Assembly: GCA_965279325.1 (NCBI GenBank)
Contig: OZ257154.1
Location: 4,865,340 to 4,929,339 of the forward strand
Source of the DNA: Burkholderiales bacterium
GTDB lineage: Bacteria; Pseudomonadota; Gammaproteobacteria; Burkholderiales; Ga0077523
DNA length: 64,000 bases
Direction: 5' to 3'
This document shows positions 7,678 through 62,274 of this stretch, piece by piece (position 1 is the first letter of the stretch; every line of letters starts with the position of its first letter). A model generated the notes under the pieces. The model saw only the letters and a program-made list of their open reading frames with translations, made no database searches and was not told the origin of the DNA. The position numbers were made by a program, and so were the translations under genes.

Positions 7678-9362
7678 GCGGCCGCTCCATCGGCCGGGAT
7701 GGGTTGCGACTTGGCGTCGCGGCGATGCTGGTATTCGAACTCGCCGTTCTTGAGTCCGCGATCGCCGATGGTCACGCGATGCGGAATGCCGGTGAGCTCC
7801 ATGTCCGCGAACATCACGCCCGGGCGCTCGTCGCGATCGTCCATCAGCACTTCGATGCCTGCCTCCGCAAGCGTGCGGTGGAGTTCGTCCGCGGCCTTGC
7901 GCACCGCCTCGCTCTTGCCATAGCCGATCGGCACCAGCGCCACGCGGAACGGCGCCATCGCATCCGGAAAGATGATGCCGCGTTCGTCGTGATTCTGCTC
8001 GATGGCCGCGGCGACGATGCGCGATACGCCGATGCCGTAGCAGCCCATTTCCATCGGCTTCGACTGGCCCTGTTCGTCGAGGTAGGCTGCATTCATCGCG
8101 ACCGAATACTTGGTGCGCAACTGGAACACGTGGCCGACCTCGATGCCGCGGAGGATGTCGAGGCTGCCCTTGCCGTCGGGACTGGGGTCGCCGGCCACGA
8201 CGTTGCGGATGTCTGCGTACTCGGCGGGTTCGGGCAGGTCGCGTCCGAAGTTCACGCCGGTGAGGTGGAAGCCATCGGCGTTCGCGCCGCACACGAAATC
8301 GCTCATGGACATCAAGGCGCGATCGGCGACGATGGGCAGGGATGCGCCAACCGGTCCGACCGACCCGGCTCCGGCACCGAGGCGCGCGCGAATCTCGCCC
8401 TCCGTCGCGAAACGGAAACCTTCCTTCAGGGCGGCCAACTTGCCGGCCTTCACCTCGTTCAGCATGTGATCGCCCCGCAGGAGCAGCAGCACTTCACCGC
8501 CGCCGTTTGCCACCAGCATGAGCGTCTTGACGACCTTCTCGGGCGGCACCTTCAGGAACGCGCTCACTGCGTCGATGGTGTGCGCACTCGGCGTGGCTAC
8601 CTTGCTCATCGGCTGCGCCGGTGCGGCACGCGGCGCCGACGGCGCGACGGCCTCGGCCAGTTCGACGTTGGCCGCGTACTGGGAATCAGGACTGTAGGCG
8701 ATCGCGTCCTCGCCCGAATCGGCAAGCACGTGGAACTCGTGCGAGCCGGTGCCGCCGATGGCGCCGGTGTCGGCGGCCACCGCGCGGAATCCGAGACCGA
8801 GCCGCGTGAAGATGCGCGAGTACGCATCCACCATGTTGCGATACTCGCGTTCGAGATCCTCGAAGCTCGTGTGGAAGGAGTACGCGTCCTTCATGAGGAA
8901 CTCGCGCGCCCGCATGACGCCGAAGCGCGGGCGGATTTCGTCGCGGAACTTGGTCTGGATCTGATAAAAATTCACCGGCAGCTGGCGATAGCTGCGGATC
9001 TCGCGGCGCGCGATGTCGGTGATGACTTCCTCGTGCGTCGGGCCGAAGCAGAAATCGCGGTCGTGGCGATCCTTGATCTTGAGCATCTGCGGGCCGAACA
9101 CCTGCCAGCGGCCGGACTCCTGCCAGAGCTCGGCGGGCTGCACCGCGGGCATCGAGACTTCCACGGCGCCGGCGGCGTTCATTTCCTCGCGGACGACGGC
9201 TTCGACCTTGCGCAGCACGCGCAGGCCGAGCGGCATCCAGGTATAGAGGCCGCTGCCGAGCTTGCGGATGAGGCCGGCACGCAGCATGAGCCGGTGACTG
9301 ACGAGCTCGGCTTCCGCCGGGGCTTCCTTGAGCGTGGAGATGAAGAATTGACTGACGCGCAT
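7653..9362 (-). CDS. proS: Proline--tRNA ligase
   Basis: 569 aa. [46 protein letters not shown] and full-length class-II ProRS architecture with an editing insertion. Confidence 0.95.
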
Positions 9363-9415
9363 GACGGGTGGGGTGGTCGAAAAGCGTTGATTTTAGCGGG
9401 CATAATCGCCGGATC

Positions 9416-10204
9416 ATGAGTCTTTTGTCGAGATTGCGAATCCACCGGGCCCGGACCGGCGATGCTTCGGTCGAGGTAAGCGAGAAGGACGGCCTGCGTT
9501 CCCTGCACCTGGGCAGCTCCACCGTCCAGAGCACCATGCGCATCGACGACCCGGTGGAACTGGTGCTGTCGTACACCCGGGCGATGATGGGGTTCCTGCT
9601 GTTCCATCCACGGCCGCGGCGGATCGCGATGATCGGCCTTGGCGGAGGGTCGCTGGCGAAATTCGCGTATCACCGCATTCCCGATTCGCGCATCGTCGTG
9701 GTGGAGAACAGCGCGCAGGTCATCGGCGCGGCGCGCAGCTACTTCGAAGTACCGCCGGACGACGGGCGGTTCGAAGTGATCCATGGCGACGGCGCCGAGC
9801 ATGTACGCGAGCATCCCGACTCGTGCGACATCCTGATGGTCGACGGCTACGACAGCGAATCCCAGGTCGAAGAGCTCGCCACGGAATCGTTCTATGCCGA
9901 CGCGCGGGCCGCGCTCGAGCGCGAGGGAATCCTCGTGGTCAATCTGTGGAGCTCCGACACGCGCTTCGACACCTACCTCCAGCGCATCGAGCGCGCCTTC
10001 GACAGCCGGGTGGTCTGCCTGCCGGCGGAGCGACGAGGAAACGTGGCGGTGTTCGGCTTCCGGCGCACGCCGGACACCACGGCCTGGGAGGCCCTCAAGA
10101 CCCGAGCGAAGCAGCTGGAGAAGACCTTCGGGCTGGAATTCCCCCGCTTCGTGCCGCGCCTGAAGGACATGAATCCGCACACGGACAAACGCCTGATTAT
10201 CTGA
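9416..10204 (+). CDS. Spermidine-synthase-like SAM-dependent methyltransferase-fold protein
   Basis: IAMIGLGGGSLAKF (GxGxG), VVENSAQVIGAAR, DILMVDGYD, ILVVNLW. Start taken at MSLLSRL. Confidence 0.65.
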   Translation: MSLLSRLRIHRARTGDASVEVSEKDGLRSLHLGSSTVQSTMRIDDPVELVLSYTRAMMGFLLFHPRPRRIAMIGLGGGSLAKFAYHRIPDSRIVVVENSAQVIGAARSYFEVPPDDGRFEVIHGDGAEHVREHPDSCDILMVDGYDSESQVEELATESFYADARAALEREGILVVNLWSSDTRFDTYLQRIERAFDSRVVCLPAERRGNVAVFGFRRTPDTTAWEALKTRAKQLEKTFGLEFPRFVPRLKDMNPHTDKRLII

Positions 10205-48869: not shown

Positions 48870-49352
48870 TCAACGCGAGTCGAGGGCTTCCTCGATGGCT
48901 TCCCGCTCCAGCGTCTGCTGCAGCAGGCGCTCGAGCATGTCGACGCGTTGTTCCATCTTCTTGTGCATCTTCATCATGCCGCCCCCTTTCATCATGTCCC
49001 CGTCCTTCTTCTCCGGCGGTTTCATGGCGGTCTTCATGCTCGCCCCCTGGCTGCGCAGCCGCTTCATCTGGTCGAGCAGCGCGCGCAGGTGTTCCCCGAG
49101 CAGCGCGCGCTTGCGATCGGGCTCTTCGGCCTGCTGAATCTGCTTCATCGAGGCTTCGATGCGCTGCATGTTCTCCTGCAACGGATCGGATTTCGCCGCG
49201 CCGTGGTCATGTTCGGCCGGTGGTGCCGCCTCCTCGGGTTGGCCGGCAGGCGGATGATGGGCCGAGTGATCTTCCTCTTCCGCGGCCTGGGTGACGGCAG
49301 CCGGTGCCGCGCAGATCAGACCGAGGGTGAGCAATAGTGATGATGGCTTCAT
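48870..49352 (-). CDS. Periplasmic His/Met-rich helical protein (possible metal-binding or CpxP/Spy-like)
   Basis: Signal peptide MKPSSLLLTLGLICAAPAAVTQA, EEDHSAHHPP...AEHDHG, DGDMMKGGGMMKMHKKM, and coiled-coil-like heptads. A GGAGG Shine-Dalgarno lies upstream. Confidence 0.55.
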   Translation of the reverse strand: MKPSSLLLTLGLICAAPAAVTQAAEEEDHSAHHPPAGQPEEAAPPAEHDHGAAKSDPLQENMQRIEASMKQIQQAEEPDRKRALLGEHLRALLDQMKRLRSQGASMKTAMKPPEKKDGDMMKGGGMMKMHKKMEQRVDMLERLLQQTLEREAIEEALDSR

Positions 49353-49701
49353 GGTGCACCTCCTTCGGAAGCCGATGCTCCGTCCACAGCGACCGTACTG
49401 AAAAGCACCCGACGTGGAATCGGCGGTTTCCGCAAGGTGCAGCGTAAGCCGCCGGAGCGGCCACCCATTGACGCAGGTCAAGGGACGACGATCCGGCGTG
49501 CGCGAATCACTCGGGATACTTGATCGTCGTCGTCCCGATCGTTACGTGGCCACCGCACGCGTTTTTTCATCGACCCTTGATCCATCACAGGAGGAAAGGC
49601 GCGGTGCATGGCCTATGCTTGCGCGAATCACTGGATGAGCGGGTGATACACCCATGGTGTGTCCGCGCCTTCGATCTGGGCCGGAATTCAAGGGGGACGT
49701 C

Positions 49702-51192: not shown

Positions 51193-52143
51193 TCAGGCAA
51201 CCGCCCGCCGTCGTAGCGGCGGCACATTCGGCGCGATGCGTTCCACCGCCGACGGCAGTGTCGTGAGGACGACCTCCGCCAGCCGCTTGATCGTCTTCTC
51301 GCGCGGATAGCGGTGCCGCCACGCGATGCCGATCACGCGATAAGGTACTGGTGCCTTGAAGGGACGGATCTGCACGAGCCCATCGCGTACCGAGCTCACG
51401 CCCGGCAGCGTCGCGAGCGCGGGCAGCAACGTACAGCCCACGCCCGCCGCCACCATCTGGCGCAGGGTTTCGAGGCTGGTGGCTTTCAGTTCCTCACGAT
51501 CGTGCGACGTCGTGGTGCCGCAGATCGCCAGCGCCTGATCCCGCATGCAGTGTCCTTCCTCGAGCAACAGCACGTTCTGGCCGGCCAGCTCGCCTTCCTC
51601 GATCTCCTGATTGTGTCCGAGCGGATGGCCTGCCGGCAGCGCCATGCAGAACGGCTCGCGAAACAGTTCGATGAATTCGAGGTCGTCTCCGTGAACCGGC
51701 AACGCGAGCAGCAGCGCATCGAGTCGGCCTTGACGCAACCGCTCCAGCAGATTGGCCGTGAGATCCTCGCGCAGGAACAGCCGCAACTTCGGATACGCCT
51801 CACGTATGGTCGGTATCAGGTGAGGTACGAGGTAGGGGCCGAGGGTGGGGATCACGCCCAGGCGCACGGCGCCGTCCATCGGATCGTCTCCCTGGCGCGC
51901 AAGTTGCCGGATCTGTTCCACCACGTCGAGCGCGATCCGCGCGCGTTCGATGATGTGTTCCCCGACCGGGGTCGGCAGCAGGTAGTGCTTGTTGCGTTCG
52001 AACAGCGTGACGCCGAGATAGTCCTCCAGCTTCTTGAGCTGCGTGCTTACGGTGGGTTGCCCCACGTGACAGGCCTCGGCGGCGCGGACGAAACGCCCCT
52101 GGTCCGCGACCGCAACGAGATAACGTAGCTCTTTCAACGTCAT
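51193..52143 (-). CDS. oxyR: LysR-family hydrogen-peroxide-responsive regulator OxyR
   Basis: MTLKELRYLVAVADQGRFVRAAEACHVGQPTVSTQLKKLE (HTH) and LLEEGHCMRDQALAIC, which carries the two redox Cys spaced as in OxyR C199/C208. Confidence 0.85.
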   Translation of the reverse strand: MTLKELRYLVAVADQGRFVRAAEACHVGQPTVSTQLKKLEDYLGVTLFERNKHYLLPTPVGEHIIERARIALDVVEQIRQLARQGDDPMDGAVRLGVIPTLGPYLVPHLIPTIREAYPKLRLFLREDLTANLLERLRQGRLDALLLALPVHGDDLEFIELFREPFCMALPAGHPLGHNQEIEEGELAGQNVLLLEEGHCMRDQALAICGTTTSHDREELKATSLETLRQMVAAGVGCTLLPALATLPGVSSVRDGLVQIRPFKAPVPYRVIGIAWRHRYPREKTIKRLAEVVLTTLPSAVERIAPNVPPLRRRAVA

Positions 52144-52381
52144 GGCTGTCTCCCCCACGTTTCGTGTGTTTTATCTCCGGTCGATTGCGGCTTACCCCAA
52201 GCCTCCCGACAACCCCTCGACCGAATCCTCCGGACGTCGTCCAGCGCGAGCCACCTCCGGTTCGGCCCCCGTGCGACGCCATCGGCAATCTACCCATTCC
52301 CCGCACATGAGGGAATAAGAAAACACGCCTCCATTGACGTTATCGATAGTAGATATCGAGTGCCGCGTTGATACATCCGTT

Positions 52382-52491: not shown

Positions 52492-53211
52492 ATGAAGCGC
52501 ACTCTGTCTGCAGCGAACTGTCTGTTTCTCGTCACTTCGTCGTTGCTGGGTGCATCTGCCCAAAGCTATGACGTCGTCACGGTCTCCGGCGGCGGTTCGA
52601 TCGAAGGCAAGGTCATCTACCAGGGTGCCGTGCCGATCAAGAAGATCATTCCGACCAAGGACAAGGAAGTGTGCGGCAGTGCGCGCGACGAGCCGCAGGT
52701 GCGCGTCGGTGGGGACAAGAGTGTCCAGGACGCCGTGGTCTATCTGAAGGAAGTGCCCAAGGGCAAGGCCTGGGGCAAGCAGGATGCGGCTCCGGTGCTG
52801 GATCAGGAGCACTGCCAGTTCCATCCCGCGGTGCAGGTGATCCGCGCCGGCCCCGTCGACGTGCTCAACTCCGATCCCGTGCTGCACAACACGCACGGTT
52901 TCTACGGCAAGCGCACGGCCTTCAATCTCGCGCTGCCCAACAAGGGCGTCAAGATAGCCGCGGATCTGCCCAGGCCGGGGCTGGTGCGAGTCGAATGCGA
53001 CGCGCACGGCTGGATGCTGGCTCACATCTACGTGGCGGACAGCCCCTACTACGCACTCACCGGCAAGGACGGCGGCTTCAGTCTGGCCGACGTGCCGCCC
53101 GGAGACTACACGCTGGTGGTGTCGCAGTACTTCCTCGGCGACCAGGAGATACCGGTGACGGTCAAGGGTGGTGAGACCGTCAAGCTCCCGGTCGAACTCA
53201 AGAAGAAATAG
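52492..53211 (+). CDS. Exported cupredoxin-like protein with a C-terminal CarboxypepD_reg-like beta-sandwich
   Basis: Signal peptide MKRTLSAANCLFLVTSSLLGASA. Candidate type-1 Cu ligands are H132/H135 (LHNTHG), C169, H172 and M175 (ECDAHGWM). C-terminus GFSLADVPPGDYTLVV. An AAGGGGAG Shine-Dalgarno lies upstream. Confidence 0.6.
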   Translation: MKRTLSAANCLFLVTSSLLGASAQSYDVVTVSGGGSIEGKVIYQGAVPIKKIIPTKDKEVCGSARDEPQVRVGGDKSVQDAVVYLKEVPKGKAWGKQDAAPVLDQEHCQFHPAVQVIRAGPVDVLNSDPVLHNTHGFYGKRTAFNLALPNKGVKIAADLPRPGLVRVECDAHGWMLAHIYVADSPYYALTGKDGGFSLADVPPGDYTLVVSQYFLGDQEIPVTVKGGETVKLPVELKKK

Positions 53212-53263
53212 TGCCGGCGGCGACCGGCGTAGCACCTACCGCAGCTCAAAGGAGGACATTCAG

Positions 53264-54388
53264 ATGAGCGAACGTGAACGGATGCGACGCGAGATGGACC
53301 GCATGCTGCGGCCGGCGGGAGAACATCCCGACGCCTGTACCTCGATCACCCGCAGGACTTTCCTGCACAAGTCGGCCGTGCTCGGCACCGGCGTGGCCGC
53401 GTGTGGCCTGTTCCCGAGCTTGAGCACCATCGATCTCGCCTTCGGCGCGGACGGACCGGCCTTCAAGTTCGCGTGGATTTCCGATACGCATCTCTATCCC
53501 AAGGAGCTGAATTCCCGCTTCGTGGAGAAGACGGTTCGTGCGGTGAAGGAAGTGCAGGCGATGAATCCGCCGGCCGATTTCCTCGTCTTCGGCGGCGACA
53601 TCGCCCAGCTCGGCGACCCGGTGGAGTTGCGCCTGGGGGCGGAGCTGCTGAAGGAGATCAAGATCAAGAAGGTCTACATCCCGGGCGAGCACGACTGGTA
53701 CCTGGACATGGGCGCGACCTGGAACAAGATGTTCGGCGCGTCGCCCTGGACGTTCGATCACAAGGGCGTGCGCTTCATCGGACTCGACACCGTCAGTCGC
53801 GCAGAGGATTTCTGGACATCGAGAAAGATGTCGCCGAAGGAGCGCATGGGCCACATGGCGACCCTCGACGGTACGCTGGGCGGCGCCTGGGCCGCGGTCG
53901 GTCCCGAGCAGCTCAAGTGGCTCAACAGCACGCTGGCGAGCTGGCCCAAGGACAAGCCGGTGATCATCTTCACCCACAACCCGCTGTGGGAGTACTACCC
54001 GCCGTGGAACTTCTGGGTGCGCGACTGGCGCGAGACGCAGGAGATCCTGAAGCCCTTCGCCAACGTCACCAACATCCATGGTCACGTGCACCAGCCGCTC
54101 TACAACGAGATCGGGAAAGTGCGCTCGATCGGGATGCTCGCGACCTCCTGGCCGTGGCCCTATGCGCCCGAAGGTGCTCCGCCTTTGACCAAGCCGATGA
54201 TCCGCGTCGACCCGGGTGATCATTTCGACGGCGTGGGCTGGGGCAAGTTGAGCATGTCGGGTGCGGCGAAGATCGACGGCGAATACATGATGTGGCGCAA
54301 GGAGGTGTTCGCTTCGGCGGACGTGGATTCCGGCACGGGCGACAACCGCAACCAGGTGCTGACCCCGCGGATCGCGGACCGTCCATGA
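53264..54388 (+). CDS. Tat-exported calcineurin-like metallophosphoesterase
   Basis: Twin-arginine motif TRRTFLHKSAVLG. Metallophosphoesterase motifs are ISDTH, FGGDI, PGEHDW (Glu where GNHD/E usually has Asn), FTHNP and GHVH. An AAGGAGG Shine-Dalgarno lies upstream. Confidence 0.75.
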   Translation: MSERERMRREMDRMLRPAGEHPDACTSITRRTFLHKSAVLGTGVAACGLFPSLSTIDLAFGADGPAFKFAWISDTHLYPKELNSRFVEKTVRAVKEVQAMNPPADFLVFGGDIAQLGDPVELRLGAELLKEIKIKKVYIPGEHDWYLDMGATWNKMFGASPWTFDHKGVRFIGLDTVSRAEDFWTSRKMSPKERMGHMATLDGTLGGAWAAVGPEQLKWLNSTLASWPKDKPVIIFTHNPLWEYYPPWNFWVRDWRETQEILKPFANVTNIHGHVHQPLYNEIGKVRSIGMLATSWPWPYAPEGAPPLTKPMIRVDPGDHFDGVGWGKLSMSGAAKIDGEYMMWRKEVFASADVDSGTGDNRNQVLTPRIADRP

Positions 54389-54426
54389 CGAAACGCAGCG
54401 CAACCAGGTCAAGAGGAGGGGACAAG

Positions 54427-54885
54427 ATGACTCGCAAATGGTTTCGCTATTCGCTCATCGCGGCAGGCATCGCGGCGTTGATCGTCGGCGGCGGCAGCGC
54501 GCACCTGGCGTTTGCCCACAAGGAGAAGCATTCGAGCGAACAGTTGCAGGCCTTCGAGGACGTGTTCATCGAACAGGTGAAGACCGGCGACCTGCTGTTC
54601 CATGGCGACGGAGCCACGGAGAAACGGCTCGGCGTGAAGCTCTCCAACACGGGAATGGCCTGTGCGATGTGCCATCCGTTCACGTCGGATACGCATCCGC
54701 ACGAGTTCCCGAAGTTCCAGGAACAGATGAACGAGTTCGCGGCGCTGCGCAACATGATCAACTGGTGCATCGAGAAGCCGAACGAGGGCGAGAAGATCGA
54801 TCCGGACGGCGAGGCGATGAAGGCGCTGGAAGCCTACATCTACTGGTCGAACCGCAACTCGAAGTTGGACCCCGGGCGGCACTGA
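54427..54885 (+). CDS. Membrane-anchored or exported monohaem cytochrome c
   Basis: N-terminal hydrophobic segment. Single CAMCH (C79, C82, H83) followed by FPKFQEQMNEFAALRNMINWCIEKP (C114). An AGAGGAGGGG Shine-Dalgarno lies upstream. Confidence 0.8.
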   Translation: MTRKWFRYSLIAAGIAALIVGGGSAHLAFAHKEKHSSEQLQAFEDVFIEQVKTGDLLFHGDGATEKRLGVKLSNTGMACAMCHPFTSDTHPHEFPKFQEQMNEFAALRNMINWCIEKPNEGEKIDPDGEAMKALEAYIYWSNRNSKLDPGRH

Positions 54886-54889
54886 TCCG

Positions 54890-54925
54890 TCGATTCCCTC
54901 CGTCGCTCAGGCGGTGGAGGGAATC
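54890..54925 (+). promoter_or_regulatory. Strong intercistronic stem-loop between the cytochrome c gene and ccoN
   Basis: CGATTCCCTCC-(14 nt)-GGAGGGAATCG, an 11-bp perfect stem starting 5 nt after the stop. No U tract follows. Confidence 0.5.
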
Positions 54926-55034
54926 GGTTGGTGACCGGGAGGATGCGTCCATGACCCGCTCGGCGTGCAGCCGGCGCGGTGGGGACGCTCGCACCAGACG
55001 ACGAACAGGAAATCGCCAGTGAGGAGCCCAGACG

Positions 55035-56471
55035 ATGGCCAGTGCAGGTGAAGCCCAAGCCGCGTTCCCGGATCTCGATTCGCTGATCGACCGGGAACTC
55101 ATCCTGAAGTGGCTGTACTGGGGTCTGTTCTGGCTGATGTTCACGCCCACGATCGGCGTGACCATCTCGACGCTGTTCAACTATCCCGACTATCTCGGCA
55201 GCTCGCCGTACCTCACGTTCGGGCGGTTGCGGCCGATGCACGTGAACGGCGTGATCTTCGGCGCCTTCTCCACCCTGTTCATCGGGCTGTGCTACTACCT
55301 GCTGCCGCGCCTGTGCGGCGTGCGCATCTGGAACGGTCACTGGGGGCACTGGCTGGTGTGGGTGTGGAACCTCGGGCTGGCCGCGGGGATGCTCTCGCTG
55401 TTCCTCGGCTACAACCAGGGCCTCGAGGCCGGCGAGTTTCCGCTGCCGATCGACGCGCTGATCTTCGTCGTGCTCACCATCGTCACGGTGCAGTTCCTCG
55501 TGACCATCGCCAGGCGCCGCGAGCCGCAGCTCTACGTGGCGCTGTGGTACCTCATCGGTGCCTTCGTCTGGACGGTGATCAACCTGATCCTGGGCAGCTT
55601 CATCCTTCCCTACTCGTTCACCGGGATCAACAGCGCGGCGTTCCACGGCCTGTTCATCCACTACATCGTCGGCCTGTGGATCACGCCGGCGGGTTACGTG
55701 CTGATCTACTACTTCCTCCCGGCCAGCGTCAGGAACCCCGTGTACAGCCACAAACTGTCCCTCGTCGGTTTCTGGTCGCTGGCTCTGTTCTATCCGTTCG
55801 TGGGCATCCACCACTACCTGTTCAGTCCCATCGCGGACTGGGCGGAGACGCTCGCGATCATCACCTCCATGCTGCTGATCGTGCCGGTGTGGACCGTGTT
55901 GCAGAACTTCTTCGGAACGATGATTGGCCGATGGCACACCTTCGGGACCAACCTGACGGCGAAGTTCATGATCATGGGCTCGCTCATGTACCTCGTCGGC
56001 TGCTTCCAGGGCTCGACCGAGGCATTGCGCTCGATCCAGGAACCCACCCACTTCAGCGATTTCGTCATCTCGCATTCGCACCTGACGGTGTTCGGCACCT
56101 TCGTCGTGTGGGCCATCGGCGGCACGGTCTACGTGATTCCCAAGCTGGCAGGCCGACCGTTGTGGTCGTTCAAGATGGGCAACTGGTCCTTCTGGCTCAT
56201 CACCTGCGGCATCTCGCTCATGGGACTGGATCTGACCATGGCGGGTCTGCAGCAGGGCTACATGCTGATGGCCGGCGCGGAGTGGCTCGACACGCTCGTG
56301 GCGATCAGGCCCTACTGGCTGATACGAACCGTCGCCGGCGCCAGCATGGACATCGGCATGTCGTTGCTGGTGATCAACCTGATGCGCACCGTGCTTTCCG
56401 CGTCCAGTGCGGCAGCGGCGGTCTCGCGACCTTCGCCCGGTAACGCTGCAACGCAGGGAGCGGCGTCATGA
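55035..56471 (+). CDS. ccoN: cbb3-type (C-family) haem-copper oxidase subunit I, divergent
   Basis: Twelve-helix protein colinear with CcoN. H69 (haem b), H209 (CuB), Y253 six residues before H259/H260 (cross-link Tyr and CuB), H347/H349 (b3 and b). The helix-VI signature reads FHGLFIHYIVGL. Confidence 0.85.
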   Translation: MASAGEAQAAFPDLDSLIDRELILKWLYWGLFWLMFTPTIGVTISTLFNYPDYLGSSPYLTFGRLRPMHVNGVIFGAFSTLFIGLCYYLLPRLCGVRIWNGHWGHWLVWVWNLGLAAGMLSLFLGYNQGLEAGEFPLPIDALIFVVLTIVTVQFLVTIARRREPQLYVALWYLIGAFVWTVINLILGSFILPYSFTGINSAAFHGLFIHYIVGLWITPAGYVLIYYFLPASVRNPVYSHKLSLVGFWSLALFYPFVGIHHYLFSPIADWAETLAIITSMLLIVPVWTVLQNFFGTMIGRWHTFGTNLTAKFMIMGSLMYLVGCFQGSTEALRSIQEPTHFSDFVISHSHLTVFGTFVVWAIGGTVYVIPKLAGRPLWSFKMGNWSFWLITCGISLMGLDLTMAGLQQGYMLMAGAEWLDTLVAIRPYWLIRTVAGASMDIGMSLLVINLMRTVLSASSAAAAVSRPSPGNAATQGAAS

Positions 56472-58186
56472 GCAGCAACCGATACGGTCTTCGTTTTTAC
56501 GCCCTGGTCGGCGGCTTCTTCTGCATCACGCTGGCCGCGTTCGTCCAGGGCGTTCTTCCCATGCTCGAGCCGCAGTCGCGCACGACCAAGGTCACGAAGG
56601 TCGTCCGCAACGACCTGGGCGAGCTGAAGTGGATGGAGCATCAGGCGAGCGACTACACGGCGCTCGAGCAGCGCGGCCGTCACGTCTACACGCGCGAAGG
56701 CTGCTGGTATTGCCACTCGCAGTACGTGCGGCCGGTGACGGGCGAGACGCGGCGCTGGGGGCCGGTGACGCAGGCGGGCGAGTACGCCTTCGACATGCCC
56801 CACCTGTTCTCCACGCGGCGCATCGGTCCCGACCTGTCGCGCGTCGGGCTCAAGTACAGCGATGCCTGGCACCTCGCGCACTTCTGGAATCCGCGCATGC
56901 TCTCGCCGGACTCGATCATGCCGCGCTTCCGGGCGCTGTTCGAAGGACCCTACCAGGCGAAGGTCGCGAAGGATGCGAGCGGCAACGTCACGCTGGAGCA
57001 GACACCGGCCACGCAGAAGCTGTTCGACTTCAAGAGCGACAAGCAGATCCTCCTCACGCCCAATGCCGACGGCCTGCTGTTCGTGCCGGAGCGCGGCCGG
57101 TATCCGGTCATCTTCACGCCGAACAAGGAATTCACCGGCGACACGGTGACCCTGGTGGCCGACAGCGAGGACCTGAAGGCGGTGATCGCCTATCTGCAGA
57201 AGCTCGGCACCAACCGGGGCAAGTGGCGTGATCGCTTCGAGCCGCAGTTGATGGAGGCGTCCCAGGTCACGGTACCGCGCTCGGAAGAATGGACCGCCTA
57301 CGGCAAGAATGTCTACGAGCGCCGCTGTCTCGGTTGCCACGGCGTGAACGGCGACGGCAACGGCCCGGCGGCCGCCTTCATGCAGCACGACCGGCCGCGC
57401 AATTTCAGCCTCGGCGTATTCAAGTTCCGGCTCACCCCTTCGGGCTCGCTGCCCGATGACGGCGACCTGCTGCGCACCATCACGCGCGGCGTGCGCGGCA
57501 CCTCGATGCCCACGTGGCACGAACTCCAGGAGAAGGACCGGCTCGCGGTGATCCAGTACATCAAGTATCACCTCGCTGCCGATCGCAGCGATGCGAGCAA
57601 GCCGTACCTGTATTTCGTGGAGGAGCCGGCGAAGGCACCGATCTTCATCGGCCAGCCGCCCAAGCCGTCGATGGAACTGGTGAAGCGCGGCCACGACGTA
57701 TGGAAGGACGCCAAGTGCTGGGAGTGCCATGGCGACGGCGGCAAGGGCGACGGCCAGAAAGCGGCGGGGCTCAAGGACGATCTCGGTTTCCCGATTCCGC
57801 CTGCCAATCTGACCACCGGGCAATTCAAGTCCGGCGCGAGCGTGAAGGACATCTTCCGCACCATGTCGACCGGATTGTCCGGGACGCCGATGCCCTCGTT
57901 CAGCGATTCACTGTCGGAGGCCGATCGATGGGCTCTGTCCTACTACGTGCTGTCGTTGTCGGCGTTTACCGATCCGCTGACCGGCGAGAAGATGCAGATC
58001 TCCGACAAGGATCGTGCGGCGCTCAACGATCCGGCCGTGACGGCAGCGGAGTCCCACTACGCCTACAAGTCGCAGACGGAGGTGCCGCCCACGCTGTTCG
58101 CGGGTGCGGCCTGGGCCCGCAAGCACGGCTTCGATTTTGCCGTGGCTCGGCCGTTGGCGGATGTCACGGATCCACGTCCAAGATAG
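56468..58186 (+). CDS. ccoO: CcoO (monohaem subunit II) fused to a C-terminal dihaem cytochrome c domain
   Basis: N-terminal TM segment, then GCWYCHSQYVRP...RRIGPDLSRVG...WHLAHFWNPR...SIMP...AVIAYLQKLG (CcoO). Two further CXXCH motifs follow (CLGCH 287-291, CWECH 417-421). 572 aa; ATGA overlap with ccoN. Confidence 0.85.
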   Translation: MSSNRYGLRFYALVGGFFCITLAAFVQGVLPMLEPQSRTTKVTKVVRNDLGELKWMEHQASDYTALEQRGRHVYTREGCWYCHSQYVRPVTGETRRWGPVTQAGEYAFDMPHLFSTRRIGPDLSRVGLKYSDAWHLAHFWNPRMLSPDSIMPRFRALFEGPYQAKVAKDASGNVTLEQTPATQKLFDFKSDKQILLTPNADGLLFVPERGRYPVIFTPNKEFTGDTVTLVADSEDLKAVIAYLQKLGTNRGKWRDRFEPQLMEASQVTVPRSEEWTAYGKNVYERRCLGCHGVNGDGNGPAAAFMQHDRPRNFSLGVFKFRLTPSGSLPDDGDLLRTITRGVRGTSMPTWHELQEKDRLAVIQYIKYHLAADRSDASKPYLYFVEEPAKAPIFIGQPPKPSMELVKRGHDVWKDAKCWECHGDGGKGDGQKAAGLKDDLGFPIPPANLTTGQFKSGASVKDIFRTMSTGLSGTPMPSFSDSLSEADRWALSYYVLSLSAFTDPLTGEKMQISDKDRAALNDPAVTAAESHYAYKSQTEVPPTLFAGAAWARKHGFDFAVARPLADVTDPRPR

Positions 58187-58195
58187 GGAGCAGCG

Positions 58196-58351
58196 ATGGC
58201 GGAACTCACCCTGATCCAGTTCTTCGTAGCCCTGTGCATGGGCCTGGGCGCGGTGTGCCTGTTCATCTGGGGCGTGCTGTCCGGTTCGTTCAACGATGTC
58301 GAGGCCATCAAGTTGAGAGCCTATCGCACGGAGGTCAACGAGGATGAGTGA
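58196..58351 (+). CDS. ccoS: CcoS/FixS-like cbb3 oxidase maturation protein (51 aa; not in the ORF track)
   Basis: Hand translation gives MAELTLIQFFVALCMGLGAVCLFIWGVLSGSFNDVEAIKLRAYRTEVNEDE. One TM helix followed by W..SG.F.D.E, as in CcoS. An AGGGAG Shine-Dalgarno lies upstream. Confidence 0.65.
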   Translation: MAELTLIQFFVALCMGLGAVCLFIWGVLSGSFNDVEAIKLRAYRTEVNEDE

Positions 58352-58553
58352 CGACACGCACCAGGCAGGGAGCCCTGGCCACGAGGACATTCCTCACCAT
58401 CAGCAGGTCGAGAGCTACGGCGGCGGAGACGTGCAGGCGCGCCACGGGCGCATCAACGGCTGGCTGCTCGTGGTCTACGCGATCATGTGGGTGTGGGCGC
58501 TCTACTACGGCATCACCTACTGGGGCGGGCTCGGGCCCGGGCTCGATTTCTAG
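58344..58553 (+). CDS. Small single-pass membrane protein (69 aa)
   Basis: His-rich N-terminus (HQAGSPGHEDIPHHQQ), then the TM helix INGWLLVVYAIMWVWALYYGITYW. The ATG overlaps the ccoS-like stop region. Confidence 0.5.
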   Translation: MSDDTHQAGSPGHEDIPHHQQVESYGGGDVQARHGRINGWLLVVYAIMWVWALYYGITYWGGLGPGLDF

Positions 58554-58828: not shown

Positions 58829-59575
58829 GTGCTCCAGTACCTGCTGGTGTTTCTCGCGGGCCTGGCGGGGAGCGTCCACTGTATCGGCATGTGCGGTGGC
58901 TTCGCCTGCGCGCTGGGCAGCGACCCGCGCGGCGCCGCCGCCAGTCTGCGCCGCCACCTGATCTACAACTTCGGCCGGGCCACGACCTACTGCTTCATCG
59001 GTGCGATCGTGGGATTCCTGGGATTGCTGCTGGTGGGTCACCAGGGCGAGAACACGACGGCGAGCCTGGCGCAACGTCTCCTGGCACTGATCTCCGGCCT
59101 GCTCATCATCTTCGTGGGCTTGCAGTTTCTCGGGGTTTCATTCGCGAGGCGGTGGCGGCTCGGCGACGCCGGCGCGCTGCGAATCACCAGCGCGCTATCC
59201 CGTTTGCTCAAAGCGCCCGGCAGCGGTGCGCCACTCGTGCTCGGCGTGCTCAATGGCTTCCTGCCCTGTCCGCTCGTGTACGCCTTTGCCGCGCAGGCGG
59301 CCGGCACGGGCGGCCCGCTGCCGGGTTTTCTCACCATGGCGGCGTTCAGCCTGGGGACCTTCCCCGCGATGCTCGCGATGGGTGGGGCGGGCCTCTGGAT
59401 GCGTTCCCGAAGCGCAACCGCCGTTTCCGTCCGTGCGCGAGGTGGCACCGTGTTGCTGCGGGCTGATCGTCGCCAACAGATCCTCCGCGTTGCCGGCGGT
59501 CTCATCATCGTGCTCGGCCTCGTCACGGTCGGTCGCGGCCTGATGCCCATGAGCGCCCATCTGCACGGGCCATGA
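58829..59575 (+). CDS. HCxxMCGG membrane protein (TauE/SafE- or DsbD_2-like), commonly linked to cbb3 or metal maturation
   Basis: GSVHCIGMCGGFACALG near the N-terminus, six hydrophobic helices, LNGFLPCPLVYAF. GTG start; ATGA overlap with the ATPase gene. Confidence 0.7.
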   Translation: MLQYLLVFLAGLAGSVHCIGMCGGFACALGSDPRGAAASLRRHLIYNFGRATTYCFIGAIVGFLGLLLVGHQGENTTASLAQRLLALISGLLIIFVGLQFLGVSFARRWRLGDAGALRITSALSRLLKAPGSGAPLVLGVLNGFLPCPLVYAFAAQAAGTGGPLPGFLTMAAFSLGTFPAMLAMGGAGLWMRSRSATAVSVRARGGTVLLRADRRQQILRVAGGLIIVLGLVTVGRGLMPMSAHLHGP

Positions 59576-61683
59576 GCGAAACCTGCAGCCATTGCCTGCT
59601 GCCGCTCGGTCGTCTGGCGCAACGCCGGGAGGTCAGCGGCGAGCCGTACCAGTTCTGCTGCTACGGCTGTTGCCTCGCCTACCAGGTGCACCACGGCGAA
59701 CGGGACGAGCCAGAAGCAGCGGCGCTGTTGATTCGACTGGGCGCGGGTGCGTTCCTGGCCATGAACATCATGCTGTTCAGCGTGCTGCTGTACTCCGGCA
59801 CTTTCGGTCCGGGTGACGGTCTGGCCGTTCGGATGGTGCATTGGCTGCTGTGGATCCTGGCCACTCCGCTGGTCGTCGTGCTGGGCGGTCCGTTCCTCGC
59901 TGGTGCGTGGCTGGCGGCCCGGCAGCGTCAGGTGGGCACCGACACCCTGGTCAGTGTTGCCGTACTGGCGGCCTATGGCTACTCGGCCTGGCAGGTCGTC
60001 TCCGGCGCCTCGGCGGTGTACTTCGATACCGTCACCATGGTGCTCGTCCTTTTCGTGCTCGGACGTTATCTGGAGGCGCGCGCGCGGGTGCAGGCTGCAC
60101 GCAGCCTCGCGCCGATGCTCGCAGCCGAACGCGCGCAGGTACGCGTGGTCGAGGACGGCGTCGAGACCCAGCGGCAGGTCACCGGTGTCCCGGCGGGTGC
60201 CGTGGTTCGCATCCTTCCCGGCGAGCGTATCCCCGTGGACGGCGTGGTGCTGGAGGGTCGTTCCGAGTGCGACGAAGCCATCCTCACGGGTCAGGCCGAG
60301 CGCGAGCCCAAGATGCCATCTGCGCGTGTCCACGCAGGCAGCATCAACGGGGCGGGGCAGTTGGTGGTGCGCGCTACGGTCGCAGGCTCGGCCACGCGCT
60401 GGATCCGGATCAGCCGGCAGGTGCAACAGGCGCTGGCGCGCAAATCGGCGCTCGGCAACGCGGTGGATCGCCTGGCGGCGACCTTTCTTCCGCTGGTGCT
60501 GCTGGTCGCGATCGGGACGGTGGCGTTCTGGAGCATGACAGTGCCCCTGGATCAGGCGCTGCTCATCGGGTTGGCGGTGCTGGTGGTCGCGTGTCCCTGT
60601 TCGCTCGGGCTGGCGGCGTCCCTGGCCACCACGCTGGCCATCGCGCAGGCAGCCCAGCGCGGCATCCTGGTGCGAGGCGGCGGCGTCCTGGAGCGACTGG
60701 CGCTAGTGCGGGCGGTCGCTTTCGACAAGACCGGGACCCTGACCCAGGGGCGACCGCAGGTGACCGCTGTTGCGCTCGATGCAGCGACCGAACGCGTGGC
60801 ACTGGCCCGTGCTTCAGCGCTGGCGATGACTTCCGATCACCCGCTGTCGAAAGCGATCGCCCGGTTCTGCCATGACAGTGGTGCAGACACGGTTCCCGCA
60901 TCGGGAGCAACGACACTCCCTGGTGCCGGTGTTGGCGGAACGGTGGACGGCGAGCCCCTGGTGCTGGGGTCCGCTGCGTTCATGGCCGCGCAAGGCCTGG
61001 AATTGCCCCGCGCATGGAGGACACCCGGCGACGGCACGGACACGCACGTATTCCTCGCGTGGGCCGGCAAGGTCCGTGCACGGTTCAGTCTCGCCGACCA
61101 GCCCATTCCCGAAGCGAGTGGCGTGACGGCGACCCTGGGCAAGCGTGGAATGCATCTGATCGTCCTGAGCGGCGATCGCGAGGCCGCGGTGGCGAGTACG
61201 GCGCGAGCGCTGGGCATTCCCGACTGGCGCTCGGGGCTCCTGCCCGAGGCGAAGGTGGCGGCCATCGCGGCACTGACCGAACATCATGGTCCCGTCGCGA
61301 TGGTGGGCGACGGGCTGAACGACGGCCCGGTGCTGGCCGCCGCATCGGTGGGTATCGCAGTAGGTGGCGCCGCCGACCTGGCGCGCGAGAGCGCGGACAT
61401 CGTCCTGCCGGAGCGGGCGCTCGAAAGTCTGCCCTGGGTGCTGGATCTGGCGGCGCGGGCGCGCCGATCCGTACTGGCCAACATCGCCTGGGCGCTCGGG
61501 TACAACTCGATCGCACTGACGCTGGCCGTTGCGGGGGTGTTGCAACCAGTCATCGCGGCAGCCCTCATGGCGGGTTCCAGCCTGCTGGTCGTAGCGAGGT
61601 CGTTGCGCTCCAATCGCGCCGGGGCCGATCGCTCCACTGCAGGCAATTCGCTCGGCATGGTTGCGGTGCCGGCGCGGCCCTGA
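59572..61683 (+). CDS. ccoI: Copper-translocating P1B-type ATPase, CcoI/FixI-like
   Basis: N-terminal Cys-rich domain CSHC...FCCYGCCLAY, TM CPC motif (VVACPCSLGLA), DKTGTLT, GDGLNDGP. Confidence 0.85.
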   Translation: MSETCSHCLLPLGRLAQRREVSGEPYQFCCYGCCLAYQVHHGERDEPEAAALLIRLGAGAFLAMNIMLFSVLLYSGTFGPGDGLAVRMVHWLLWILATPLVVVLGGPFLAGAWLAARQRQVGTDTLVSVAVLAAYGYSAWQVVSGASAVYFDTVTMVLVLFVLGRYLEARARVQAARSLAPMLAAERAQVRVVEDGVETQRQVTGVPAGAVVRILPGERIPVDGVVLEGRSECDEAILTGQAEREPKMPSARVHAGSINGAGQLVVRATVAGSATRWIRISRQVQQALARKSALGNAVDRLAATFLPLVLLVAIGTVAFWSMTVPLDQALLIGLAVLVVACPCSLGLAASLATTLAIAQAAQRGILVRGGGVLERLALVRAVAFDKTGTLTQGRPQVTAVALDAATERVALARASALAMTSDHPLSKAIARFCHDSGADTVPASGATTLPGAGVGGTVDGEPLVLGSAAFMAAQGLELPRAWRTPGDGTDTHVFLAWAGKVRARFSLADQPIPEASGVTATLGKRGMHLIVLSGDREAAVASTARALGIPDWRSGLLPEAKVAAIAALTEHHGPVAMVGDGLNDGPVLAAASVGIAVGGAADLARESADIVLPERALESLPWVLDLAARARRSVLANIAWALGYNSIALTLAVAGVLQPVIAAALMAGSSLLVVARSLRSNRAGADRSTAGNSLGMVAVPARP

Positions 61684-61686
61684 GCC

Positions 61687-62274
61687 ATGACAAGAAGCAG
61701 ATTCGCGGTGCTGGCCCTGCTGTTCTTCGGTCTGGTTTCGACCGTATCCGCCGACACACGCAGTCCACAGCGCGTGACGCGCGTCAACGGCGGCTGGCCG
61801 CTCGACGCCTTCAAGCTGGTTGACCAGAACGGCCGGAAGTTCACGCACGAGCAGCTTCGGGGGCAGTGGACCCTGGTGCTCATGGGCGATACCCGCTGCG
61901 GTGAACGCTGCGCGGCACCGTTGTCTGCGCTCACGGGCATGTACGAGCGGATCGCGCGCACGCAGAAGCTGCAGACCACGCAGGTGCTGTTCGTTTCCGT
62001 TGCCGGCGACTCGCCGGAGCAACTACGGCAATACCTCGCGCCGTTCGATCAGCACTTCCTCGGCGTTACCGGCACGCCGAAGACCCTGACGAAGCTGGCG
62101 GAAGACCTGGGGATCAGCGAATCGCTACCCGCTTCGCTCGTCCTGCCGAACGGCGACTACCCCGGCGTGCTGTCGGTGGTGGATCCCGAAGGTGTCGTGT
62201 GGGGCCAGTACCTGCCGCCGTTCGATGTAAAGCTCCTTACCGCCCGGTACTTGAAGACGCGCGTCGGACGGTAG
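61687..62274 (+). CDS. SCO1/SenC-family copper chaperone
   Basis: Signal/anchor MTRSRFAVLALLFFGLVS. Thioredoxin-like fold with the CxxxC motif TRCGERC. Starts 3 nt after the ATPase stop. Confidence 0.8.
   Translation: MTRSRFAVLALLFFGLVSTVSADTRSPQRVTRVNGGWPLDAFKLVDQNGRKFTHEQLRGQWTLVLMGDTRCGERCAAPLSALTGMYERIARTQKLQTTQVLFVSVAGDSPEQLRQYLAPFDQHFLGVTGTPKTLTKLAEDLGISESLPASLVLPNGDYPGVLSVVDPEGVVWGQYLPPFDVKLLTARYLKTRVGR

Follow-up and report, generated by a model that had tools for sequence, protein, structure and literature searches.

The 64,000-nucleotide stretch of a Burkholderiales bacterium genome analysed here (contig OZ257154.1 of assembly GCA_965279325.1, positions 4,865,340 to 4,929,339 of the forward strand; hereafter the window) carries three consecutive genes encoding a candidate type-1 copper protein (P1), a metallophosphoesterase-fold protein with a twin-arginine (Tat) export motif (P2) and a c-type cytochrome (P3). 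These genes form one conserved periplasmic module, which is co-inherited with a distinct cbb3-type oxidase and with copper-supply genes. A preliminary description of this DNA, made from the sequence alone, had pointed to the trio as a possible redox enzyme module. We tentatively read it as a compact, non-canonical Sox-like electron-donor module of the periplasm wired to its dedicated cbb3-type oxidase, a reading that we regard as possible and somewhat short of probable.

Conservation of the trio and linkage to a terminal oxidase

A scan seeded with P2, keeping one genome per species, returned 80 loci. They span the alpha-, beta-, gamma- and deltaproteobacteria, Rokubacteria, Methylomirabilota, Nitrospirae, Acidobacteria and Entotheonella, and the carriers include the metagenome-assembled genome (MAG) of a Mn-oxidising Nitrospirae. 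The identity of P2 across related loci was 64-88%. The order P1-P2-P3 was found in every locus with room on both sides (69/69), and a CcoN-like gene was also present in 43 of the 46 loci offering at least 4.5 kb on each side. In the reverse direction, metagenomes were scanned from CcoN: of 39 informative loci, 38 have all three genes immediately upstream. The entire cluster is common to Cupriavidus and Thiocapsa. The comparison thus supports the trio as an obligate unit tied to the downstream oxidase, and the 69 loci clearly contradict the outcome that the preliminary description had named as its refutation, namely that the three genes occur independently of one another.

In the Arenicellales locus L068 (11712-15887), and likewise in L066, L070, L072, L074 and L083, another set of oxidase proteins is encoded after the trio: a dihaem cytochrome c, a monohaem cytochrome c, a 190-aa membrane protein, a CcoN-like protein only 30% identical to that of the window and then a FixO-like protein. 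The trio can therefore be joined to more than one type of C-family oxidase. On the Sinorhizobium meliloti plasmid pSymA (L179, 5604-9875) the oxidase genes diverge from the trio, with SCO, hemA (5-aminolevulinate synthase) and a groEL copy lying between; an element of the IS630 family stands immediately after P3.

P3, a cytochrome of the SoxA/TsdA family

P3 scores 35.5 bits against the SoxA/TsdA-type domain model PF21342, above the cut-off of 27. Its haem motif C79-A-M-C82-H83 is invariant, and among about 80 aligned homologues drawn from many phyla the motifs ACAMCHP and NWCIE are at least 97% conserved. A profile built from 18 diverse homologues and compared with the PDB retrieved SoxA (1h31, 2.7e-5; 2c1d, 1.8e-4) and TsdA (4wq7, 4e-3). 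Cys114 of P3, invariant in 77 homologues, aligns with SoxA Cys114 (1h31) and TsdA Cys96 (4wq7), which are axial cysteine ligands, so that P3 probably binds its haem through a His/Cys axial pair. The domain score, the CxxCH motif and the aligned distal Cys place P3 among the SoxA/TsdA-type cytochromes. With the SoxA equivalog TIGR04484, P3 reached only 28.8 bits against 110, covering model positions 18-95. Being far under this equivalog cut-off, it is a single-domain relative and not SoxA proper.

P2, a metallophosphoesterase with a variant metal site

P2 belongs to the metallophosphoesterase superfamily (PF00149, 44.1 bits against a cut-off of 21.5), and four of its metal motifs are intact: D74/H76, G111-D112, H238 and H272-G-H274. 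The classic set of five motifs (DxH, GD, GNH(D/E), H, GHxH) is broken by an Asn to Glu change in the third, which reads G141-E142-H143-D144, as the preliminary description had noticed. P2 keeps the fold membership of the superfamily, and its ligand set is a variant. The Asn of the GNHD motif ligates the second metal in GpdQ, and E142 replaces this second-metal Asn, as the IPGEHD of P2 overlies the IPGNHD of GpdQ. From the Asn80 variants of GpdQ, a carboxylate in place of Asn should bind the second metal more firmly, and such tighter binding in P2 fits an assembly in the cytoplasm ahead of Tat export. The change is invariant and is shared with relatives down to 30% identity; in the alignment of about 80 homologues, SDtHLYP, GGD, IPGEHDWY, H238 and HGH.HQ are at least 97% conserved. 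Two Trp-rich segments, PWNFWVRDW and SWPWPY, are also invariant.

The structure model of P2 is of low confidence (mean predicted local distance difference test score, pLDDT, of 56.9). Searched with Foldseek, it matched GpdQ at 2e-12 (TM score 0.70 of target), Rv0805 at 4e-10 and a purple acid phosphatase at 1.5e-9, a 5'-nucleotidase-type structure ranking just 22nd. No SoxB model was matched in NCBIfam, which gave only weak matches to CpdA and SpdA, or in Pfam, which gave Metallophos only. P2 was therefore rejected as a SoxB homologue, and the kinship with SoxB to which the preliminary description appealed extends to the superfamily and no further, the closest folds being those of GpdQ and Rv0805. 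As P2 lies outside the SoxB family, a role shared with SoxB could be proposed by analogy only.

These data bear on a first alternative, in which P2 is an ordinary phosphoesterase, for instance a periplasmic phosphate-scavenging phosphodiesterase, whose mixed-valent centre would be kept or reset active by the carriers encoded beside it. One-electron redox changes switch purple acid phosphatases on and off and could serve as a model by analogy; the hydrolytic motifs are all intact bar the Asn, purple acid phosphatases are among the nearest folds together with GpdQ and Rv0805, and databases label the family CpdA or Icc. We nevertheless judge this alternative very unlikely, since P2 scores 46.9 bits with the CpdA model, far under its cut-off of 225, no pho or pst genes were seen in any inspected locus, and an ordinary phosphoesterase would not account for so strict an association with a terminal oxidase or with SoxYZ.

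Candidate redox partners of P2 relatives

Searching 1.84 billion representatives exhaustively, we retrieved 1480 relatives of P2 at E<=1e-3, among them 84 at E<=1e-30. The twin-arginine leader, PGEHD, a PWNFW-like segment, a WPWPY-like segment and HGHxHQ are retained by full-length relatives with as little as about 30% identity. GEHD therefore marks a whole Tat-exported subfamily, and the idea that it is a peculiarity of the trio locus was discarded in view of this wide occurrence.

Members of this PGEHD branch were repeatedly found beside one-electron carriers or fused to them, in agreement with the suggested partnership of the phosphoesterase with redox proteins. A relative 41% identical to P2 is followed by a SoxA-TsdA_cyt-c gene, and a 36%-identical one by a SoxA-TsdA_cyt-c gene and then a gene for HiPIP, the electron acceptor of TsdA in Allochromatium vinosum. 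A 45%-identical relative (L172, 5667-8832; also L173) has a CCP/MauG-type dihaem gene (438 aa) before it and a gene for a SoxA/TsdA-type cytochrome (226 aa) after it; LysR regulators flank this set. The CCP/MauG-type neighbour and the invariant Trp-rich segments of P2 may conceivably hint at aromatic residues modified in the manner of MauG. Just before a 34%-identical relative lies the gene of a true cupredoxin with a CTIHPFM loop. In P0332, P0327 and P0386 the Tat-exported PGEHD metallophosphoesterase itself carries a C-terminal cupredoxin, an architecture present in 118 of 120 homologues of P0332 among the matches listed, out of at least 8000 candidates. These fusions make up a large family, with members in Gemmatimonadales, for example. 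The cupredoxin loop of P0332 is a short C-x2-H-x2-M as in P1, and that of P0327 a CuA-like C-x3-C-x3-H-x2-M. Phosphoesterases of the branch were also seen fused to a Rieske [2Fe-2S] domain (P0359) or with a C-terminal CxxCH segment (P0367).

On the Ralstonia solanacearum megaplasmid (L180, 5079-9370), divergent genes for an ECF sigma factor and its anti-sigma factor accompany a 33%-identical PGEHD phosphoesterase and a 125-aa COX2-like cupredoxin, an arrangement encountered in more than 130 Ralstonia plasmid records. Genes for Bfd-like (2Fe-2S) and ferritin proteins follow the COX2-like cupredoxin, which resembles cytochrome c oxidase subunit II. More distant relatives of P2 are solitary and lie beside Fur-family or siderophore genes.

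Judging from these sequences, the metallophosphoesterase-cytochrome pair predates the trio, and the oldest partner of the PGEHD branch appears to be a Cys-ligated cytochrome. The "Rosetta-stone" fusions and neighbours are the strongest indication that a protein of the P2 fold exchanges electrons with one-electron carriers. A wider proposal would be that the Tat-exported PGEHD metallophosphoesterases form a class of redox enzymes that has escaped notice and has a hydrolase fold as its scaffold, with a dimetal site that swaps single electrons with cupredoxin, HiPIP, Rieske or Cys-haem partners; the window enzyme, its relays and its private cbb3-type oxidase would then be a self-contained chain for an inorganic donor, present in at least eight phyla. 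We put this forward as a conjecture that deserves attention and is rather more doubtful than secure. Flavodiiron proteins, redox enzymes built on the hydrolase scaffold of the metallo-beta-lactamase fold, offer a parallel case.

The same neighbourhoods raise the question of the donor, which could be other than sulfur. The P2 dimetal site would then oxidise Fe(II), Mn(II), phosphite or arsenite and pass electrons through P3 and P1 to the oxidase. The carriers fused to the branch or encoded beside it are high-potential one-electron carriers; distant relatives have an iron context (Fur-family genes, Bfd with bacterioferritin, a siderophore non-ribosomal peptide synthetase with its receptor); and the trio is carried by the Mn-oxidising Nitrospirae MAG and by many soil and groundwater lineages. 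By analogy, the set of four His, one Glu and two Asp ligands that results from the Asn to Glu change in P2 may be likened to redox-active di-iron sites, which have a similar one. Against such a donor, the constant partner of P2 is a SoxA/TsdA-type cytochrome, and to our knowledge every characterised cytochrome of this type acts on sulfur. Moreover, SoxYZ genes occur in about 40% of the trio loci, and the iron contexts are confined to relatives of 33-41% identity lacking the cytochrome. A non-sulfur donor is thus unlikely in our estimation.

P1, a candidate type-1 copper protein

The residues H132, H135, C169, H172 and M175 on which the blue-copper proposal was founded are present in P1. H132, C169, H172 and M175 are invariant in 45 close homologues and at least 97% conserved in the alignment of about 80, and they provide the upstream His and the Cys-xn-His-xn-Met loop expected of type-1 copper ligands. 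The only Pfam domain of P1 is the transthyretin-like CarboxypepD_reg at its C-terminus (residues 177-236). None of the cupredoxin families of Pfam was matched by the 45 homologues even at E<=10, and P1 matched no named family in NCBIfam. Against the PDB, phmmer and profile searches gave just one marginal match, the CuA-domain chain 5u7n at 0.22. The AlphaFold2 model has a mean pLDDT of 72.5, falling below 50 in the site loop (129-149), and its Foldseek matches are confined to the transthyretin-like domain.

Using hhalign, residues 97-181 of P1 could be aligned with amicyanin end to end with the four copper ligands in register, at a weak P of 0.053, in line with the earlier remark that the C-x2-H-x2-M spacing is that of amicyanin. 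The Cupredoxin_1 domain fused to the P2 relative P0332 aligned with P1 at P 0.008, again with the four ligands in register. A type-1-copper-like site in P1 is likely on these alignments.

Sulfur-carrier genes in trio loci

Genes for SoxY and SoxZ were detected by tblastn in 32 of the 80 related genome loci (about 40%). Of these, 12 are alphaproteobacterial and carry SoxY and SoxZ as separate genes, as do 8 loci from marine metagenomes; the two genes mostly come directly behind the ATPase gene of the cluster, and an FCSD-like flavocytochrome accompanies these flanking genes in some loci. For instance, on S. meliloti pSymA the RefSeq annotation shows SoxY, SoxZ, a c-type cytochrome and an FCSD-like flavoprotein beside the trio; neither SoxXA nor SoxB is found within 11 kb at this annotated locus.

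In about 20 further genome loci, a SoxY-SoxZ fusion with a Tat signal is encoded between P3 and CcoN (examples are L029, 11870-12718; L050, 11566-12489; and L034, about 8816-9520). These loci are deltaproteobacterial or belong to Rokubacteria, Methylomirabilota, Acidobacteria and Entotheonella. The fusion exceeds the Pfam cut-offs of SoxY and, more weakly, of Desulfoferrodoxin, and also matches SoxZ. It aligns with SoxY over the full length, and an invariant GGC, now internal, occupies the place where SoxY has its carrier cysteine. We considered that it could be a plain Tat-exported superoxide reductase and rejected this assignment in view of the full-length SoxY alignment, the retained GGC and the Lys that usually stands at the first His ligand. 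From its motifs, the fusion may be a metal-binding hybrid carrier.

Gene spacing and export signals

The three reading frames of the trio are co-oriented on the + strand with gaps of 52 and 38 nt, as first described. The claim of a Shine-Dalgarno sequence for each gene was also sound: the purine-rich stretches GGGGAG, AGGAGG and GAGGAGG are found 6-9 nt before the ATGs of P1, P2 and P3, respectively. Export signals had been assigned to all three products, and those of P1 and P2 stand. P1 has a Sec-type leader, the end of which reads GASA followed by QS. In P2, TRRTFLHK is followed by the hydrophobic SAVLGTGVAACGLF, consistent with the Tat consensus (S/T)RRxFLK plus hydrophobic region and hence with predicted Tat export; the twin-Arg pair is invariant among homologues, and Pfam TAT_signal gave a weak match for one P2 relative. 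The N-terminal anchor attributed to P3 has to be revised. The P3 N-terminus is charged, then hydrophobic, then reads AFA followed by HK, so that its leader is probably a cleavable Sec signal peptide and need not be a membrane anchor.

Two further observations concern these N-termini. Residues 1-28 of P2 (53264-53350) form an unusually long charged extension, starting with MSERERMRREMDRMLRPAGEHPD, ahead of the twin-arginine motif. The extension is kept in close homologues, the peptide MRREMDRM having served as search pattern, and may be a chaperone-binding or proofreading segment. In P3 (residues 28-35), the AxA-type signal-peptidase site immediately precedes the invariant His31 (AFA, then HKEKH), so that mature P3 would begin with His. 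A second conserved His lies four residues after His31, and the pair is reminiscent of N-terminal histidine-brace copper sites.

Oxidase cluster, regulator and surroundings

The features of the cluster are collected in Table 1.

Table 1. Features of the trio, of its upstream region and of the oxidase cluster, with positions in the window
Feature	Positions	Strand	Description
OxyR-like LysR-family regulator	51193..52158	-	Pfam HTH_1, LysR_substrate; divergent from trio
Perfect palindrome TCGATA-N5-TATCGA	52343..52359		regulator/P1 intergenic region; candidate operator
P1	52492..53211	+	239 aa; Sec-type leader, amicyanin-type ligand set (residues ~97-181), CarboxypepD_reg (177-236)
P2	53264..54388	+	374 aa; Tat-motif dimetal metallophosphoesterase-fold protein, "PGEHD" subfamily
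P3	54427..54885	+	152 aa; monohaem c-type cytochrome, SoxA/TsdA family
Inverted repeat	54891..54926	+	16-nt arms (88% complementary), 4-nt loop; just past P3 stop, 109 nt before ccoN
CcoN-like catalytic subunit	55035..56471	+	COX1 Pfam 3e-72; distinct C-family (cbb3-type) clade
Fused CcoO-CcoP	56468..58186	+	572 aa; Pfam FixO (9e-46), Cytochrom_C x2, Cytochrome_CBB3
Small membrane protein	58344..58553	+	69 aa; no Pfam match; homologue at same place in most related loci
DsbD_2 / TauE-SafE-type membrane protein	58829..59575	+	PF13386 8e-43; conserved in cluster
P-type (CcoI-like) cation ATPase	59572..61683	+	homologues in L001-L003 carry E1-E2_ATPase, Hydrolase; conserved in cluster
SCO1/SenC copper chaperone	61687..62274	+	PF02630 4e-20; last gene of conserved cluster

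The CcoN-like subunit matches the solved CcoN chains 9g6b and 3mk7 at 5e-58, with a modest score of about 200 bits over the full length. It keeps the His of the HxxVG region, Y-x5-HH and HxH, that is the positions of the haem and CuB ligands and of the cross-link Tyr. With these ligands, this Tyr and a FixO subunit, the enzyme qualifies as a C-family oxidase. The fused CcoO-CcoP adjoins CcoN in related loci too, in place of the canonical ccoNOQP layout with separate subunits. The S. meliloti homologue of the DsbD_2 protein is labelled "sulfite exporter TauE/SafE family protein" in RefSeq. SCO1/SenC closes the cluster in Cupriavidus and Thiocapsa as well, and the genes outside the cluster borders are unrelated (TctC, CoA transferase, acyl-CoA dehydrogenase, hydrolase). 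In a domain scan of the window and of related loci, no CcoG-like or CcoH-like genes were seen in the cluster.

The last result could indicate that the trio provides copper and haem accessory factors for this oxidase clade in replacement of CcoG and CcoH. The trio is always beside the oxidase, in many loci also with the Cu-ATPase, SCO1 and DsbD_2 genes, and the putative copper-type site of P1 would suit such a function. It is nonetheless hard to reconcile with the relatives of the P2-P3 pair, which lie beside HiPIP or CCP genes on recovered contigs lacking an oxidase, and with the metallophosphoesterase-cupredoxin fusions, which form a large free-standing family. Moreover, we know of no precedent in oxidase assembly for an intact dimetal hydrolase site combined with a SoxA-type haem. 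A function in biogenesis is in our opinion highly improbable.

Upstream of the trio, the OxyR-like regulator contains GHCMRDQALAIC, which we take to resemble the two redox cysteines of Escherichia coli OxyR. Of 70 genome loci, 18 have a homologue of at least 50% identity no more than 2.5 kb upstream of P2; all 18 are from beta- and gammaproteobacteria, so this association is lineage-specific. The palindrome between regulator and P1 occurs once in the window against 0.03 expected. Allowing at most two mismatches, it was recovered in 31 of 39 regulator-P1 intergenic regions of other loci, the rough chance being about 0.015 per 400-bp region; because of this recurrence it is likely to be the operator of the LysR-type regulator. 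Past the P3 stop, the inverted repeat is followed by no T-run and may therefore be an intercistronic stem-loop, which may set the ratio of trio to oxidase expression. About 2 kb upstream of the cluster (48870-49481, - strand) is encoded a 203-aa exported protein without a significant Pfam family; its tail is rich in Met and His (KKDGDMMKGGGMMKMHKKM), and it looks like a periplasmic copper- or metal-binding protein.

Proposed mechanism and its weak points

In the Sox-like electron-donor module that we propose, P3, with a Cys/His haem of SoxA/TsdA type, would oxidise inorganic sulfur species, either by coupling the sulfur to the carrier cysteine of a SoxY-type protein or by a TsdA-like S-S coupling. 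P2, a dimetal hydrolase loaded before its export by Tat, would hydrolyse the bound sulfonate as SoxB does or, alternatively, would bind an oxyanion at its dimetal site. P1, with its type-1-copper-like site, would take a SoxX-like or HiPIP-like role and hand single electrons to the three haems of CcoO-CcoP and on to O2. No carrier is encoded near the window trio, hence either a gene at a distant site of the genome would supply it or the module would have to do without it. The one-to-one linkage with one oxidase clade favours a direct delivery of electrons to the oxidase, and disfavours a free-standing stress enzyme or an ordinary phosphodiesterase.

Several observations weigh against this proposal. 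The SoxYZ carrier, encoded with the enzymes in Sox-type systems, is missing here: neither SoxY nor SoxZ could be found in the 64-kb window even at E<=10, and tblastn detected no gene for either in most beta- and gammaproteobacterial loci. Since P2 is SoxB-like no further than the superfamily, its role as a sulfonate hydrolase is an analogy only. The cupredoxin fold of P1 is weakly supported, the alignments and the model giving it no independent confirmation. The regulators point elsewhere, with the OxyR-like protein in the window, genes for ECF sigma factors and zf-HC2 anti-sigma factors in loci of deltaproteobacteria and Ralstonia, and Fur-family genes beside distant relatives of P2. In addition, a CCP/MauG-type peroxidase gene adjoins one P2 relative, bacterioferritin or siderophore genes adjoin others, and in the SoxY-SoxZ fusion H-x5-H and C-x2-H fall where superoxide reductase has its iron ligands.

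Many of these points would be accommodated if the trio were an oxidative-stress module, in which P1 and P3 would relay electrons of the cytochrome c pool to the P2 dimetal site for the reduction of H2O2, superoxide or NO, beside a high-affinity oxidase scavenging O2. The OxyR-like regulator with its conserved candidate operator, the ECF sigma, zf-HC2 and Fur-type regulators of related loci, the position of the CCP/MauG-type gene directly upstream of the 45%-identical relative, and the Desulfoferrodoxin score and kept ligand residues of the fusion all agree with such a function, as does the fact that many carriers are microaerophiles or anaerobes. A stress reductase, however, has no need to be inherited one-to-one with one CcoN clade. 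The canonical-type SoxY and SoxZ of the alphaproteobacterial loci are devoid of superoxide-reductase-like residues, and a low-potential His/Cys haem would be an unusual intermediate for electrons passing from a cupredoxin to an oxidant. Altogether we hold a stress function to be decidedly unlikely.

Previous descriptions and significance

Full-text literature searches turned up no paper describing the trio, the PGEHD subfamily or metallophosphoesterase-cupredoxin fusions. In databases P2 is labelled "metallophosphoesterase / Icc / CpdA" and P1 "carboxypeptidase regulatory-like / plastocyanin", the label "hypothetical" being also used. Papers on Paraburkholderia, Thiobacillus denitrificans and alphaproteobacterial oxidases were found to have no bearing on the trio, and the oxidase clusters listed for T. 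denitrificans are ordinary cco clusters. The roles of SoxXA, SoxYZ and SoxB are summarised in PMC2864759; some Cupriavidus have a canonical sox cluster elsewhere in the genome, an example in the same paper being Cupriavidus metallidurans CH34, and the oxidase clusters listed for CH34 are ordinary cco clusters.

If the Sox-like proposal is right, the module would be a widespread, very strongly conserved and so far overlooked path by which electrons of an inorganic donor, probably sulfur, reach oxygen through a high-affinity oxidase of its own, and microaerobic sulfur cycling would be read differently from soil, groundwater and marine genomes. Thousands of proteins annotated as phosphoesterases and fused to cupredoxin, Rieske or haem domains may be redox enzymes. 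Culturable carriers of the module are Cupriavidus necator, Cupriavidus oxalaticus, Ralstonia pickettii and Sinorhizobium meliloti SM11 and Rm41.

Comparison with known systems

By analogy, the module would be closest in its working to Sox or TsdA combined with a layout like that of the rus operon, with donor chain and oxidase in one operon. It shares with the Sox system (SoxXA, SoxYZ, SoxB) a periplasmic location, a probably Cys-ligated haem protein of the SoxA family, a Tat-motif dimetal protein of the metallophosphoesterase superfamily and, in about 40% of the related loci, SoxY and SoxZ genes, and it would likewise deliver electrons to a chain of c-type cytochromes. It differs in that P3 has one domain only and falls well short of the SoxA equivalog cut-off, P2 is akin to GpdQ and Rv0805 and lacks the 5'-nucleotidase-like part, the copper-type P1 stands in place of SoxX, the window lacks SoxYZ, and the module is hard-linked to its own oxidase. 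The His/Cys haem catalytic domain of TsdA, which uses TsdB or HiPIP as acceptors, belongs to the Pfam family of P3, its Cys96 corresponds to P3 Cys114 by alignment, and one relative of the P2-P3 pair has a HiPIP gene behind it. TsdA is nevertheless dihaem and needs no hydrolase, whereas P3 is monohaem and always paired with a metallophosphoesterase.

GpdQ and Rv0805, class III phosphodiesterases (CpdA/Icc), have the closest solved folds to P2 and share its metal-binding motifs. Unlike P2 they have GNHD instead of GEHD, are cytoplasmic or not Tat-exported, and are devoid of the PWNFW and SWPWPY segments and of redox partners. Amicyanin, the acceptor of methylamine dehydrogenase, has the C-x2-H-x2-M spacing and the upstream His in register with P1. 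The similarity is weak (P 0.05), however, P1 is extended at the N-terminus and carries a transthyretin-like domain at the C-terminus, and no methylamine dehydrogenase genes lie nearby.

The oxidase resembles the canonical cbb3 enzymes (ccoNOQP with ccoGHIS) in the haem and copper ligands and cross-link Tyr positions of CcoN, in the FixO domain and in the supply of copper by a CcoI-like ATPase and SenC/SCO; it departs from them in its fused CcoO-CcoP, in the CcoG and CcoH not seen in the cluster and in the attached trio. Finally, the rus operon of Acidithiobacillus ferrooxidans groups cytochromes, rusticyanin and an aa3 oxidase into a self-contained downhill chain for one inorganic donor. It brings together a cupredoxin, c-type cytochromes and a dedicated oxidase in one operon, as the cluster described here would if P1 is indeed a cupredoxin, but the proteins are unrelated, its oxidase is of the A-family and not the C-family, and it has no dimetal component of hydrolase fold.

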